This document shows positions 24,697 through 33,008 of a stretch of DNA of 64,000 nt, piece by piece (position 1 is the first letter of the stretch; each line of letters opens with the position of its first letter). Below the pieces are notes generated by a model. That model had not been told where the DNA came from, ran no database searches, and worked only from the letters and a program-made list of their open reading frames with translations. This DNA is from an uncultured Chlamydiae bacterium (GTDB taxonomy: Bacteria > Chlamydiota > Chlamydiia > Chlamydiales > Parachlamydiaceae), in the NCBI GenBank assembly GCA_963754655.1, contig CAVWGN010000001.1, positions 800,001 through 864,000 on the forward strand, given 5' to 3'. Made by a program: the position numbers and the translations under genes.

Positions 24697-27009
24697 TTAT
24701 TCTTTCCATTCATCATCATTTATCTGTTGAGCATCATCTCCTTCTATATCTCTTCTAAGACTTTTCGCTGCGGCCATGATGCTGAGTTGAATGCGCTCAT
24801 TGTCTGGTAGGCTTTCCCATACTTTTTTCAAAGTCTCATCTTGAGTGATTTGTTTGGTTGTATAACCTTCTTTTTCAATTAATTGTTTGATTCTTGTGTA
24901 AGGATCTTGTTTCTGTATGGGATGATCACCAATAAAGTCCGTTTTATTCAATTTCCTTCCTTTTTTGATTTGATTTAAAAGTGTCTCTTGATTTTCAGAT
25001 GCTTTAATAGGTTGTTCTTTAGTAAGATCTCGTTTATTTAATTGACTTGCTCCATTTTTGATTTGATCAAAGAGAGCCTCTCGACCTTCTGGTTTTACCT
25101 CTTGAATATTGGTCTTGTTCAAGCCTTGTTCTCTCCTTCTCTGGATCTGCTCAGCCAGAGAAAATGATTTTTCTTCTTGATCTTCGACAAGCTTAGGCTC
25201 AACATCAATCGCCTGATAATGTTCTTTATTAGGTGATTCTGTTGAATAGCCCATTGTTTGTTGTGGATGGGGAAGAGAGGGGGGTAAATCTTCAGGAGGA
25301 GGTGAGAAATCTTTTAATACTGCTATTTCGTCAGAAAAAGTTGGTGCTTTTTCTGTTGTTTCTTGTGGTTCAGGAGGCAATTGTAATTCTTCTGGTAGTA
25401 TGATTTCATTTTCTTCTGTCTGAGTTAACTCTTCTGTTAGTATAGGTGTGACCCGCTCTTTAACTTTGAGAGCTTGATTTAATTCCTCATGAAGCTTTAA
25501 TTTTTCAATTAATTCAAAAATATGATTAGTTTGGTATTTAAGTTTAGGAAAAGAAAAGGAAATTAAAGTCTTGAGTTGGTTCACATCATCCATTTCTTCA
25601 AATTTCTTGGGCAGAGAATCTGGTTTAAATGGACTATTTTTGACTTCCTTGGCAATTTCTTGGAGAGTAGAATGGATAGAGTCTTTAAGCTTTTGAGTCT
25701 GAGTAAAATCCTGAGGGACCTTTGTTTCCTGTGTTTGTTTTGCTTTCTCTGCATGCAGTGTTAAATTATCGCGGTAAAGCTTAAGCTCTTGACGTAAAAT
25801 ATTCATTTGATTTGCTGTTTTTTCTCTTAGGTCTAAGAAAGAGATTGCTTGCCTGCTTCTTTTTAGTTGTATGCTTAATTTTTGACAGTAAAGATCCTTT
25901 TGGTGCAGCCAACTCAATTCTTCATGATTAAATTTTGCAGTTTTCTTTATTTCTTTATAGGTCTCTCTTTGACCTTCTCGAACTTTATCGAGCTCTTGTA
26001 TTAAATAATCTTTGCCTTTAAAAAATCGATACGCAGCATCTATCACTTTATTGCCATAAATTGATTTCTCTAACTTAGAGATTCGATTGCATTCTTTTTT
26101 ATAGAGCGAGTATAAAGCTTCTAAAACTTCCTCTTGTTGACCTAAAGCTTGTATTCTTCTATCGTTTATGAAAAGAGTTCCATCCCATAATCGCTCAATA
26201 TAACCCTTTAAATCAGGAAAGGCAGATTTAAGTAATTGATGGATATCTTCACCGTTTAATCTTTCTTTTTTGAGAATTTGTTGTAATTCACTCTCTGCTG
26301 TTGGATGCAGAACTTCTTTCAGGGTTTCTACTAGAGCTTTCCTTTCCTCTCCGATCTTAGTAAAGTTCACCCATGTGCCTTGAAAGTAATAATCTTTCAT
26401 TGCGACTTCAATGTTAAGAAGCTTGTTGGTCACCTCTAATGTTCGTTCGAAGCCGGCAATAGTTTTTTCTAATTTCTGGATTTGTCCTGGCAAAGCGTCA
26501 TAAGTTAAATGCCTATCTGCTAATTCGATAGCGGTGCTTTCATGTTCTTTTAATTCCTGTAAATATGTTTTAGCTGTAGTTAATTTTTCACGCGCCCCTT
26601 TTAAATACCCAGCATTAATAGCTACCGTGTCCGCATTAGGAAATTTTCCAGCTAATTTTCTTTCTGCATGTGTTGCTTTTATTGTCCACTTCGATAATTG
26701 ATCGATCGCTTGTTTGGTACTCCCTATAAGCACATGAATACTTTCAGCTTGTTCTTGTTCAGATTGAGAAATTTTACCAAAAATTCTGTTAAAAAATTGC
26801 CCAATTTTATTCCAAATCGCTAAGTGCCGAGAAATAACAATAGATTTTAATCCAGGTTTGGCGCTTTCTTCAGAGCCGTTACCTTTTAATGTTTCGGTGG
26901 CAATCAACTGAGTTAGACTTTTATTAGAAGCCCTTGTATTTCCTGTTGCCTCTGAAGGAGAAGAAGTAGAATCAATAGGAAGTGAAGAAGGGGAATCATG
27001 TATATGCAT
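24697..27009 (-). CDS. WASP/RickA-like candidate effector: coiled-coil, Pro-rich linker, 3 WH2 motifs, central helix, acidic DDEW tail
   Basis: SLAEQIQRRREQGLNKT, REALFDQIKNGASQLNKR, ETLLNQIKKGRKLNKT; SIMAAAKSLRRDI; terminal NDDEWKE; Ser/Pro-rich N-terminus. Confidence 0.75.
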   Translation of the reverse strand: MHIHDSPSSLPIDSTSSPSEATGNTRASNKSLTQLIATETLKGNGSEESAKPGLKSIVISRHLAIWNKIGQFFNRIFGKISQSEQEQAESIHVLIGSTKQAIDQLSKWTIKATHAERKLAGKFPNADTVAINAGYLKGAREKLTTAKTYLQELKEHESTAIELADRHLTYDALPGQIQKLEKTIAGFERTLEVTNKLLNIEVAMKDYYFQGTWVNFTKIGEERKALVETLKEVLHPTAESELQQILKKERLNGEDIHQLLKSAFPDLKGYIERLWDGTLFINDRRIQALGQQEEVLEALYSLYKKECNRISKLEKSIYGNKVIDAAYRFFKGKDYLIQELDKVREGQRETYKEIKKTAKFNHEELSWLHQKDLYCQKLSIQLKRSRQAISFLDLREKTANQMNILRQELKLYRDNLTLHAEKAKQTQETKVPQDFTQTQKLKDSIHSTLQEIAKEVKNSPFKPDSLPKKFEEMDDVNQLKTLISFSFPKLKYQTNHIFELIEKLKLHEELNQALKVKERVTPILTEELTQTEENEIILPEELQLPPEPQETTEKAPTFSDEIAVLKDFSPPPEDLPPSLPHPQQTMGYSTESPNKEHYQAIDVEPKLVEDQEEKSFSLAEQIQRRREQGLNKTNIQEVKPEGREALFDQIKNGASQLNKRDLTKEQPIKASENQETLLNQIKKGRKLNKTDFIGDHPIQKQDPYTRIKQLIEKEGYTTKQITQDETLKKVWESLPDNERIQLSIMAAAKSLRRDIEGDDAQQINDDEWKE

Positions 27010-29265: not shown

Positions 29266-30324
29266 TTAAAATATCCAAAACTTGCCAAAAGACAAAGTCA
29301 GGACCCAGCTCATTAGCAAAAAGATTTTGATCCATTTAAGAATGCTTGATTCTCTTTGATTAGACAATAAAATAAGGGCTTGCAAGCGTTTAACGGCATG
29401 ATGTGAAGTTGCAAAGGATCGGGCGAAAGTGGGAAGGGAAGCCGTATGTAGCCAGTCAGCTGCTTTGTAAAGTGCTTCGGCCAAATGCAAGTGATTGAGA
29501 GAGGTACCAGGCAGTCGATCGCATGCATATTCCTGAGCAAACTCTAATCGGGTCTTAAAATAGCGGGTTGGAATCCACCAAAAAAGATGACAAATCCCAA
29601 ATAAAACTGCATTGACTATAAGGTCTCCATGCATCAAATGAGCGAGTTCATGTGCAATGATAGCCTCAAATTCTTGTGGGATGAGTTTGTCAAATAGAGC
29701 GCGAGAAATGAAAATGGCTGGACGGCGCTGTCCGATGATGAAAGGGGAGTGAGGTATGGGGGTCAAATAGATGGCTACTTTTTTGTGTTGAATTCTCGAT
29801 TGCAAAAGGGAATCTTGTAGCGGATAAGAGTAGGGGGTAGAAATGGAGCACAGTTTGTTGAGCCATTGAGAAGATAAGCGATATTGCCAAATTGCCTGTC
29901 CTAAAAACCAAAGTGTTCCGGCAATCAAACCTAAAGCGCAAATTAAGGTCCACTGGCAGCCTATTTTGAGGCAAAGAAGATCCGCAAGAGTAAAGGTTTG
30001 TCCGTGAGAAAGATGAAGATCGATCGAAGAGAGAGGATACTGGAAGGGAAACAACCAGAAGTTCAGACTCAACATGCGCGTCCCCTCAGGACTGGTCAGA
30101 GGATTGAGCTGTTGAGCAAGAGCCCAATTGGAAAATTCATAGGAGCCCAAGTCGGTGATCAACTTCATAAATGGAATTAATAAGCAGAGCGCCTGAAGAC
30201 GGCCATTTTGGATGCGTAAAAGCTTCAAAGCAAAGTAAGTCAAAAAGCTTAAAGTGAAAAACGAGAGTAGGCTATTGACTCCTACATTGACAATGAAAAT
30301 CGGCCATAATGAAAATTCCATCAT
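29266..30324 (-). CDS. M56-family membrane metallopeptidase (BlaR1-like, no sensor domain)
   Basis: Multiple TM segments, AHELAH, LFWWIP, QEYACD; adjacent to blaI. Confidence 0.9.
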   Translation of the reverse strand: MMEFSLWPIFIVNVGVNSLLSFFTLSFLTYFALKLLRIQNGRLQALCLLIPFMKLITDLGSYEFSNWALAQQLNPLTSPEGTRMLSLNFWLFPFQYPLSSIDLHLSHGQTFTLADLLCLKIGCQWTLICALGLIAGTLWFLGQAIWQYRLSSQWLNKLCSISTPYSYPLQDSLLQSRIQHKKVAIYLTPIPHSPFIIGQRRPAIFISRALFDKLIPQEFEAIIAHELAHLMHGDLIVNAVLFGICHLFWWIPTRYFKTRLEFAQEYACDRLPGTSLNHLHLAEALYKAADWLHTASLPTFARSFATSHHAVKRLQALILLSNQRESSILKWIKIFLLMSWVLTLSFGKFWIF

Positions 30325-30701
30325 TTCATCTCGTTCTTAGCTTTTTGAAGAATGTTTTTCATCTCTTCTAAATCTTGCATTGTTAAATCCTTGCTTGAAT
30401 CGATCAAATAGCGAATCATGGCAATAGAGCGTCCCCCAAAGAGGCGTTGCTTAAGTCGCTCAACAAGTCCAAGCGCAGAAGTTTTTGATGTTTGGGGAAG
30501 TTGATAAAGATAGTGACGTCCTTCCCGCCGGCGCTCTAAATCTCCTTTTTCAAACAGCCGTGTCATTACAGTCATGACCGTCGTATAAACAACAGTTTGA
30601 TTCAAAGCTTGATAAATTTCTTTGACTGAGACCTCTTCTTTTTCCTTGATCAGCTGGAGAATAATCCACTCCAATTCGCCAAATAATCGTTTCTTTGACA
30701 C
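30321..30701 (-). CDS. blaI: BlaI/MecI/CopY-family repressor
   Basis: GELEWIIL, YTTVMTVMTRLFEKG, GRHYLY, FGG; ATGA overlap with the M56 gene. Confidence 0.92.
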   Translation of the reverse strand: MSKKRLFGELEWIILQLIKEKEEVSVKEIYQALNQTVVYTTVMTVMTRLFEKGDLERRREGRHYLYQLPQTSKTSALGLVERLKQRLFGGRSIAMIRYLIDSSKDLTMQDLEEMKNILQKAKNEMK

Positions 30702-30793: not shown

Positions 30794-31432
30794 CCAGTAC
30801 TCCATTACACTAGTTTTTGCCTATTGGGAGCGCTTGAAAAGCTCCCGCGGTTGAATTGGGATGAGATGATTCTCTTGTAGTCCTTCAGACTACATGACGA
30901 GGGCTAATCTAACCCAGGGCCAGGTGTTCATTTTGTGCAAAAATGAGCTTTATTTTTCACAATAATTGGCATAGTTGAATTGAAGGTCGCATGTTTATGC
31001 CGTCTTTTCAGGACTCGATGTCTTTTTGATAGAACCCAGGCCTCCGCTTCGCTTCGACCTGGGCTGTAACATGACGGCCCTTCAGGCCTTAACAAGAGAT
31101 GTTTAAGCCCCTCTTCTATAGTCTCTAAATAGTTTTTTGTTAAGGCCTGAAGGGCCGGCCCTTCAGGCCTTAACAAGAGATGTTTAAGTCCCTCTTCTAT
31201 AGTCCCTAAATCATCTTTTTGTTAGGCCTGAAGGGCCGTCATGTTACAGCCCAGGTCGCAGCGAAGCGGAGGCCTGGGTTCTATCAAAAAGACATCGAGT
31301 CCTGAAAGGACGGCATAAACATGCGACCTTCAATTCAACTATGCCAATTGCTCATTTTTGCACAAAATGAACACCCTAGCCCGGGCTTTGAAGCACTCCC
31401 AATAGGCTAAAATTAATGTAATGAATTACTAA
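30794..31432. mobile_element. Diverged element A with element B (30923-31376) nested in its right arm
   Basis: AGTACTCCATTACACTAGTTTTTGCCTATTGGGAG...CTCCCAATAGGCTAAAATTAATGTAATGAATTACT; B copy has a tandemly duplicated central unit. Confidence 0.85.
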
Positions 31433-31446
31433 ACTCACCTAAAAAT

Positions 31447-32499
31447 TTATTGATATTGTTTTACATGTTCTTCAAAAGACCAACTTAACAAATTCAAGAG
31501 GATCACAGCTGATACAACGCGTGTAAAGCGCGGACCAAATCCCTTATAAGGTTCAGCCAATAGATGATGGAATAATTCACCTAGCGCTTGATCAACACGA
31601 CCCGTTTGATGGCTAGTTTGCAAGCTATTTTTCATTATTGTGCGAATTCCTTGAGGCCAAAATACTGTCTTCATTCCTCCTTGGCACTGCGTTTTCCATG
31701 TATCAAAAGGCTGCGTCAGAGTTGCTCCCAGTGCTCCAGCAAAGGCACTTCCTACAATGGTTGCTATCAAATTCAAAGGGATAATCTGCTGTTGAGAGGC
31801 AATGAATTTAAAAGAATCATTTTTTTGTAGGCAAGCTGCAAAATAAGGTCCTCCTGCTGCATAAGATGCTGTAAATGGCATTTCTCGCAATATAGTTGGA
31901 ATTAACCCTAATGTTAATGTTCGCCGACCATATTGCTGCCACAATTCAGTTGTCGCTTTCCAGTAGGTTGGGCGAATTCCCTTTTTGGCTTGTTCTTCAT
32001 AACGCCTTACATTTTCGCGTTGTTTATCCATGAGCATTTCGCTCCAACTAGCAATGGGAGCTGCTACCAATCCTCCAACTATGGAAGCAAATAATTTTTC
32101 TAAGTCAGAAAGGGATTCAGGATTTCTTCCGTGAGCCAACTTTTGCTTTGTCCAGCCGATCGCCCCCATTTGCACCCCAATGATGATGCTCATTCCTGTT
32201 CCATTCACTAAAGCTCCCCCATATAACTGGCGTAAGCTCAAAGATTTCCAAATCGAAGGTGCATGTTGGGATTTATTTTGAACGGTACGCATGCGCTTTT
32301 GCAAAATATTTTTAAATGTGACAAGGGGTTGATCAACTGCAACTTCAATTGCTCCTGAAAATATGCCCTTAATTACGTCTTTATAAGGGCTAGAAGCCAA
32401 AGAGGTCATTGCTCCATGTAGGAAAGATCCTTTTTCAAAAAACGGATTCAAGGCTAAAGAATTGTCCTTTGGCTTAACGGGAGGGATAGACATCGTCAT
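31447..32499 (-). CDS. Mitochondrial carrier family (MCF/SLC25)-like protein
   Basis: Three repeats: QPLVTFK...LYGG, SWSEMLMDKQR...LGLIPTILRE, QPFDTWKT...YKGFGPRFTR. Confidence 0.85.
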   Translation of the reverse strand: MTMSIPPVKPKDNSLALNPFFEKGSFLHGAMTSLASSPYKDVIKGIFSGAIEVAVDQPLVTFKNILQKRMRTVQNKSQHAPSIWKSLSLRQLYGGALVNGTGMSIIIGVQMGAIGWTKQKLAHGRNPESLSDLEKLFASIVGGLVAAPIASWSEMLMDKQRENVRRYEEQAKKGIRPTYWKATTELWQQYGRRTLTLGLIPTILREMPFTASYAAGGPYFAACLQKNDSFKFIASQQQIIPLNLIATIVGSAFAGALGATLTQPFDTWKTQCQGGMKTVFWPQGIRTIMKNSLQTSHQTGRVDQALGELFHHLLAEPYKGFGPRFTRVVSAVILLNLLSWSFEEHVKQYQ

Positions 32500-33008
32500 T
32501 CTCCAAAATGTAAATGATTTTCTGTAATACCTAACATCTATAAATAATTAAAGTCAATTAATAAGAATGAAAAATAGTGTCATTTAAAAAATCAAAATTT
32601 TAAGGAACAAACTATTGATATTGATTAAAGAAAAAGAAGAATTTAAATAGACAAAATAATGACGACAAAAATAAGAGAGGAAAGAAGAAGGACAGCAAAA
32701 GAAAAAGGAGCCATAACCGAACAGGAACTAGAATGCCAAGCACTTGGTGGCTTAGTTGGATTTAAAGGATTGTATCGCATCGCTTACCTAAAAGGGATTA
32801 TTTAAAACTTTGTCAGAACCTGTTTTTATTAGCTTTTGCTAACAAATTTGACATTAATTCTAATTGCATCCGTTTGTATTGTCAAGAAAAATGAAAAAAA
32901 ACTTCTCTTAATTTATTAGAAGTGATAAACTCTCAAATTTAAAATCTTTAAATAGATCTTAATATTTAGATTTATTAAATAGATAAATTACTTTGAGTTG
33001 AGGTATAA

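Follow-up and report, generated by a model that had tools for sequence, protein, structure and literature searches.

A mitochondrial-type carrier gene and its small upstream ORF in a genome of the Parachlamydiaceae

The mitochondrial carrier family has been described, in the accessible text of one account, as having no prokaryotic homologues (bioRxiv 10.64898/2026.03.31.715626). The accessible parts of other papers list Legionella and Neorickettsia with carriers (PMC3252375), place carriers in a handful of bacterial strains including "a few Chlamydiales" (PMC5621508), and note them in Babela (PMC4378268). LncP of Legionella pneumophila is described, in the accessible sections of its report, as a substrate of the Dot/Icm type IVB system that is exported and assembled in mitochondria, with measured transport of ATP and GTP (PMC3252375). 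For Lpg1137, a pseudo-carrier has been raised as a possibility (PMC5621508, accessible text). Our searches of the open literature turned up no work devoted to a chlamydial carrier; subscription papers and the supplementary orthogroup tables of chlamydial pangenomes may list such proteins.

Carrier family, fold and matrix gate

We analysed a window of 64,000 nucleotides, the whole stretch of DNA under study, from an uncultured environmental chlamydia of the Parachlamydiaceae whose genome of 3.16 Mb lies in two contigs and is 96.7% complete. The product of the minus-strand gene listed in Table 1, the sole carrier gene found in this genome, is confirmed as a true mitochondrial carrier. The family assignment of the original prediction was borne out by the Pfam Mito_carr profile (PF00153), which matched in three stretches, one for each repeat (E 9.7e-17, 60.9 bits against a cut-off of 22.3). 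An AlphaFold2 model built on a 13-row alignment (pLDDT 76, pTM 0.71) has six long helices plus matrix helices, which is the predicted six-helix carrier fold. The best Foldseek matches of the model were UCP1 and ADP/ATP carriers, and VIA-align superimposed 272 residues on the matrix-open ADP/ATP carrier 6gci_A (Z 18.9, rmsd 4.5), the first non-carrier row following at Z 6.5. A sequence search of solved structures returned no carrier among its matches, and the family is recognised by profile and fold only. Met3 is the likely start of the ORF: a GGAG lies 7 nt ahead of its codon, and the database protein has 348 aa. We ruled out contamination or recent transfer, because the gene lies on a 3.1 Mb contig, has no introns, is syntenic in four genomes and has the GC (0.42) and GC3 (0.33) of the genome.

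Table 1. Positions in the window of the carrier gene, its signature residues and the adjoining features
Feature	Coordinates	Strand	Remark
Composite palindromic repeat element	30923..31375	.	3' of the carrier gene, where orthologous loci hold a cyclase-family gene
Mitochondrial carrier family (SLC25) gene	31447..32499	-	350 aa from first ATG; probable start Met3 at 32493
R324-x-x-R327 on helix 6	31519..31530	-	Contact point III = R327
Two-helix insertion, third matrix loop	31555..31665	-	About 35-45 residues; in close orthologues, absent from P0014
Repeat 3 signature P264-x-D266-x-x-K269...Q273	31681..31713	-	Canonical
Contact point II, R205-E206	31882..31887	-	Amino-acid carrier type; position inferred by register from the preceding Gly
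Repeat 2 signature P148...W152-S-E154-x-x-M157...R161	32017..32058	-	Met in place of the base; kink proline shifted by one turn of the helix
Repeat 1 signature Q57-P58-L-V60-x-x-K63...Q67	32299..32331	-	Val in place of the acid; basic residue and glutamine brace retained
N-terminal extension, residues 3-39	32383..32493	-	Ser/Pro/Asn-rich disordered start, then predicted amphipathic helix 26-36; candidate type III export signal
Unannotated 45-codon ORF	32643..32780	-	Ser/Pro-rich N-half, C-terminal hydrophobic helix; co-inherited with the carrier
Sigma70-type promoter match, 11/12	32857..32885	-	Upstream of the small ORF

The matrix salt bridges of carriers join the acid of helix 1 to the base of helix 3, that of helix 3 to the base of helix 5, and that of helix 5 to the base of helix 1 (PMC9104175, section 2.1). 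The three motifs quoted for this protein in the original prediction (QPLVTFK, SWSEMLMDK and QPFDTWK) are all present, but K159 of the second is off register; the correct reading is W152-S-E154-M-L-M157, with Trp in place of the proline and Met in place of the base. Likewise, the [YF]xG motifs hold in repeats 1 and 3 (Y93-G95 and Y318-G320) but not in repeat 2, which has T-L-G198. The Px[DE]xx[RK]xxxQ matrix network thus retains two of its three bridges (E154-K269 and D266-K63) and two glutamine braces, with the helix 3 proline displaced, and both partners of the H1-H3 bridge are replaced (V60 and M157). It had been proposed that the degenerate signatures of repeats 1 and 2 indicate altered gating. 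That they are a special trait of this protein is not supported: positions 60 and 157 are the two partners of a single salt bridge, and because the same pair is lost in all 28 eukaryote-clade relatives aligned, V60/M157 is not an effector adaptation. In these 28 sequences the commonest residue is V or L at position 60 and M or I at 157, and K63, E/D154, D266 and K269 are retained throughout. The H1-H3 pair is non-canonical across the subfamily, as judged from the best 150 of 191 matches in a representative search, and the oxoglutarate carrier is functional without the same bridge (PMC9104175).

What does set the carrier's clade apart, on the aligned sequences, is a proline that has moved from 152 to 148 (in 12 of 12 members), together with the N-terminal extension and the loop insertions. 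K63 and K269 are each lost in 3 of the 12 members. At the ends of helices 2, 4 and 6 we saw, by eye, no complete [YF][DE]xx[RK] motif, which suggests a weak cytoplasmic network.

Inheritance, spread and the small ORF

A profile of 13 close homologues, run on 73 genomes of the family, matched nine of them: five strongly, one in pieces and three weakly. In four genomes of three genera (G000, G115, G235 and G112) the carrier has the same position, preceded by clpP-dapF-UPF0158 and an Rce1-like gene. Four further relatives were compared; two have the Rce1-like gene directly beside the cyclase-family gene without a carrier, one has other genes there, and in one the contig ends too soon. The carrier shares 47% identity with its same-genus orthologue (pN 0.33, pS 0.65), the neighbouring genes 38-92%. 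Because the gene is syntenic in four genomes of three genera, is missing in relatives, changes less at non-synonymous than at synonymous sites and has genome-like GC and GC3, it is old, selected and accessory, having been lost in close relatives.

In three of the four syntenic genomes the carrier is followed on the same strand by a cyclase-family gene (a weak arylformamidase match, 23.6 bits against a cut-off of 223); here the palindromic repeat occupies that place. We considered a functional link between carrier and cyclase and judged it incidental, since the cyclase-family gene occurs in 38 of the 73 family genomes, stands beside Rce1 without a carrier in two, and is missing here. The palindromic element, with arms of 193 nt and internal repeats of 81 nt, is a member of a large mobile or REP-like repeat family: it gave 831 blastn matches in the genome, of which many cover nearly its whole length with 80-96% identity, and Rfam Acido-Lenti-1 matched below threshold (36.4 against 37 bits). 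Elsewhere in the window, 29266-30701 on the minus strand encodes a BlaI-type repressor and BlaR1/M56 peptidase pair that is conserved in G115, and 24697-27009, also on the minus strand, a 770 aa protein with a Ser/Pro-rich N-terminus, a long coiled region and a proline-rich stretch. A WH2 motif in the latter scores just below the cut-off (23.0 against 23.1 bits) and is followed by similar repeats; the protein is a candidate actin-binding effector. The bacterial locus L090 (G000:C1:1211906-1214380) encodes a protein of 825 aa that contains 13 Myb repeats.

Aligning the upstream DNA revealed a 45-codon ORF in all four syntenic loci. It has the same length as its G115 counterpart and 62% identity to it, with 13, 8 and 17 changes at codon positions 1, 2 and 3, and 4 of 298 comparable upstream gaps of the genome contain such an ORF. 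ORF and carrier are absent together in relatives; a profile of the small ORF matched only its four training sequences in the 73 genomes and cannot show absence. An Atlas search with it gave no usable match, and a scan of 34 carrier genes, which missed one of the four known cases, added one small ORF before a distant carrier beside BrnQ (L060). The promoter match recurs at the same place in two orthologous loci, hence in three of four, the scan giving none in the third orthologous locus, and overall promoter-match counts were not above those of shuffles. Between small ORF and carrier no terminator-like hairpin was found in the four loci scanned, nor was an Rfam riboswitch, and the fold z-score was +1.24; on these grounds we rejected a riboswitch or classic attenuator. 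The 45-codon product might be exported as well, serve the carrier as an accessory subunit or act as a leader.

Across the phylum, 118 of the 400 genomes scored (one further genome could not be scored) contain a PF00153 match, spread over 85 of 212 genera, and 116 of them lie above the cut-off; none of 14 control genomes has a match, nor does any of the 29 genomes of one chlamydial family. Several matches come from one- or two-contig genomes; loci were examined for the best 30 and for 16 wider regions of the 118 genomes, among which some contamination is possible. The view of the original prediction that such proteins are essentially eukaryotic therefore understates their spread in this phylum. 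Several divergent carrier lineages appear in the chlamydial trees. In a quick tree of 62 of 192 rows, whose backbone is open, the clade of this carrier (SH-aLRT 99) falls inside a group of 18 rows (100) that is separate from the eukaryote-type clade (99). With 30 rows each, a single origin of all bacterial-type members was not rejected (p-AU 0.12), and one clade of the chlamydial members was weakly rejected (p-AU 0.017), the groups having been named after a tree was seen. LncP was compared by eye, from three repeat fragments. Viral contigs held no relative of the carrier, and metagenome contigs gave one weak match. In the view proposed below, the source of the gene would be a eukaryotic subfamily.

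Sister lineages stand beside genes for BrnQ, a Na/alanine symporter, LysE, B3/4, an aminotransferase, ornithine cyclodeaminase, a PALP enzyme, arginase/AdoMet decarboxylase or class II DAHP synthase, the genes often touching. At six loci (L053, L056, L057, L059, L060 and L063) the carrier gene shares an operon with genes for BrnQ, LysE, B3/4, aminotransferase, ornithine cyclodeaminase, TauD-like or 2OG-Fe dioxygenases and class II DAHP synthase. Several chlamydial genomes have tandem pairs of two different carrier lineages (L005, L008/L064, L012), carrier matches within frames of 622 and 543 aa may be fusions (G269:C63 and G258:C64), and one sister-lineage gene lies in several pieces, as a pseudogene or an assembly error (L036/L130, G423). 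A branch or grade of the same subfamily (P0060, P0149, P0075 and 17 others) has signal-peptide-like N-termini.

Substrate, membrane and competing explanations

We numbered the contact points from the Gly that opens each even helix, which is our own register assignment; contact point I is then G102/I106/Q110 and uncharged. Eight residues of the site and gate (E52, N99, E154, R205, E/D206, D266, R324 and R327) are invariant in 12 of 12 clade members, among them R205, E/D206 and R327 of points II and III. Invariant E52 may, we presume by analogy, couple protons. According to the accessible text of PMC6769469, R[DE] at point II is a mark of amino-acid carriers, and glycine carriers are uncharged at point I. 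Since point II is R-E, point III is Arg and point I is uncharged, the site suggests a neutral amino acid or a close derivative as substrate, not ATP. In most of the 15 regions listed, the related chlamydial carriers have neighbours that serve amino-acid transport and metabolism (50 chosen neighbours scanned). The repeats of LncP given in a supplement also have R-D at the matching place by eye, yet LncP carries ATP and GTP; the R[DE] rule can therefore fail. Import of S-adenosylmethionine was weighed as a purpose and is less likely, MetK being present in the genome. The carrier is likely of the amino-acid type and stands in a two-gene cassette with the small ORF.

The N-terminal extension noticed at the outset is real, at 34-42 residues in all 12 clade members. 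By 10-residue hydropathy the carrier has no cleavable hydrophobic Sec signal peptide: the best value is 0.21 (clade median -0.14), against a median of 2.42 in the 20 signal-peptide-like relatives. The count of Ser, Thr, Pro and Asn in residues 2-25 has a clade median of 12, reached by 2.3% of 2092 ORFs of the genome, and is 9 in this carrier, reached by 15.3%, so that the composition is enriched in the clade and moderate here. In random samples of 20 from 84 high-, 185 middle- and 1012 low-score ORFs, repeat-domain proteins that we labelled effector-like numbered 8 at scores of at least 11, 9 at 9-10 and 0 at 6 or below; 11 of these 17 are paralogues of one family (DUF4116), and 7 of the 20 proteins at 9-10 were ordinary enzymes. 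The large DUF4116-repeat family of this genome made up 11 of the 40 high and middle scorers sampled. Among 11 other chlamydial carriers, which we classed as operon-type, the median is likewise 9. For F-box-type families of these bacteria, functional type III signals are described in PMC4209131, where DUF4116 is not named. A position-specific matrix built on the N-terminus proved too narrow for the detection of effectors.

The approximate SRP-window hydrophobicity of the carrier is 0.0, a weaker value than that of every one of the 149 polytopic proteins of the genome (the weakest at -1.0) and of its four nucleotide translocases (-2.4 to -4.8), on a simple summed scale and with a polytopic set chosen by hydropathy, which makes the comparison partly circular. 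Weak hydrophobicity is seen to the same degree in every carrier group, the eukaryotic ones among them. In the accessible sections of a survey (PMC6110835), weak hydrophobicity is said to let exported membrane proteins avoid the inner membrane, and the 36 type III substrates for which membrane segments are predicted have no more than three. The genome encodes the type III apparatus (SctU 381.7 bits and SctV 915.1 bits, both above NCBIfam cut-offs), and a VirD4-family search of this 96.7% complete genome gave no match. The type III apparatus, the weak hydrophobicity of the helices, the missing signal peptide and the Ser/Pro-rich extension lead us to favour type III export to a host membrane, at about even chances; function in the bacterium's own membrane would be a close second.

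The best explanation, to which we give a probability slightly below one half (about 0.48), is a working amino-acid SLC25 carrier that is exported by the type III system to a host membrane and feeds the symbiont. An alternating-access carrier would have been gained long ago from a eukaryotic subfamily; its substrate, as the contact points suggest, would be a neutral amino acid or close derivative; and export would use the Ser/Pro-rich N-terminus, the step of which we are least sure. The exported protein might then enter the mitochondrial inner membrane of the host by the host carrier-import pathway, tentatively the likelier destination, or the inclusion membrane, which we think unlikely, and would move amino acids toward the symbiont. 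IlvD had no match in the 96.7% complete genome, and the symbiont appears unable to make branched-chain amino acids. By their matches, four TLC nucleotide translocases and three BrnQ proteins are present, and uptake of ATP and of branched-chain amino acids is, on this annotation, already served. A wider version of the favoured explanation strikes us as doubtful: a six-helix amino-acid carrier and a small membrane peptide would be injected together by the type III system into the inclusion or mitochondrial membrane, sister branches having been refitted with signal peptides or operons for their own membrane, and environmental chlamydiae (about 30% of genomes, several lineages) would repeatedly have kept mitochondrial-type carriers.

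A plausible alternative, somewhat short of an even chance, is that the carrier imports amino acids across the inner membrane of the bacterium itself, into which it would insert with no signal peptide and with its matrix loops in the cytoplasm, the 45-residue peptide being an accessory subunit or regulatory leader. The basic matrix loops (7, 10 and 6 K/R against 0, 5 and 3 D/E) fit positive-inside insertion, and sister lineages lie in amino-acid operons; carriers have been functionally expressed in Lactococcus membranes. The 20 relatives with signal-peptide-like N-termini make own-membrane use of the subfamily likely in bacteria, but this carrier has neither a signal peptide nor a strong SRP window. 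The same-strand cyclase-family gene that follows in three of the four syntenic loci speaks for this explanation only as far as the link is not incidental, and a leader peptide fits poorly with loci that lack a hairpin and a riboswitch and with the fold z-score given above. Other amino-acid importers are present in the genome, which weakens the need for another, whereas the survey of type III substrates, in its accessible part (PMC6110835), holds none with six segments, which weighs against export.

Two further explanations concern the activity itself. A carrier of nucleotides, phosphate or a cofactor, serving energy parasitism like LncP in whichever membrane, would account for the three arginines that line the site (R205, R324 and R327) and for the R-D seen by eye at the same place in LncP, which carries ATP, GTP and phosphate. 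We consider it very unlikely: contact point II is R[DE] and not G[IVLM], invariant E52 and E/D206 offset the arginine charge, four TLC nucleotide translocases are already present, and the sister lineages have amino-acid gene context. Least likely of all is a pseudo-carrier that has lost transport and affects host mitochondria through binding or by blocking import, a possibility raised for Lpg1137. The clade-specific proline shift, the loop insertions, the fast change seen against the same-genus orthologue and the losses of K63 and K269 would agree with it, but the central-site residues are invariant in the clade and common to the eukaryote-clade relatives, and pN is below pS.

To our knowledge, how small nutrients reach chlamydiae across host-side membranes is an open question. 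If the clade is exported, it would provide a concrete candidate for such passage and raise the number of membrane segments in type III substrates above the three of the survey (PMC6110835); if the carrier and its peptide are injected, the symbiont would build a nutrient channel into a host-side membrane. If the carrier instead works in the membrane of the bacterium itself, it would represent an SLC25 transporter native to bacteria, also of interest. The 118 of 400 genomes, with several lineages that differ in their N-termini, offer a natural experiment on the routing of carriers to bacterial or host membranes.

Comparison with described carriers

LncP and this protein are both mitochondrial-carrier-family proteins of intracellular, amoeba-associated bacteria, both are encoded by accessory genes, and both have non-canonical signatures and, by eye, R-[DE] at contact point II. 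The analogy drawn in the original prediction thus holds as a bacterial precedent but is loose otherwise: LncP is exported by a type IVB system and carries ATP and GTP, whereas here a type III system without VirD4-family matches, a Ser/Pro-rich extension, a small partner ORF and an amino-acid-like site are found. Its three repeat fragments look different from this carrier by eye, and membership of LncP in the same subfamily was not borne out by them.

PNK_1926 of Ca. Protochlamydia naegleriophila (P0166) shares the clade (SH-aLRT 99) and the locus arrangement with the small ORF (L050). It differs in having 303 aa without the repeat 3 insertion, and it bears only the automatic UniRef name "Mitochondrial carrier protein", with no study found. 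By motif, the SLC25 amino-acid carriers (SLC25A38/Hem25, ornithine and glutamate carriers) resemble it in R[DE] at point II and Arg at point III, and the glycine carrier also in its uncharged point I; likened in the same way, the oxoglutarate carrier shares the missing H1-H3 bridge.

Closest by tree is an uncharacterised eukaryotic subfamily that includes sequences of Fonticula alba (P0034), Chlorokybus (P0070) and Cyanidium caldarium (P0170), three of the 28 eukaryote-grouped sequences being named. It belongs to the same subfamily (SH-aLRT 99) and has the same gate pattern and E52, Q110, R205, E206, R324 and R327, whereas its members have about 280 aa, no long extension, no loop insertions and a retained helix 3 proline. 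The chlamydial carrier thereby gives a handle on this eukaryotic subfamily.
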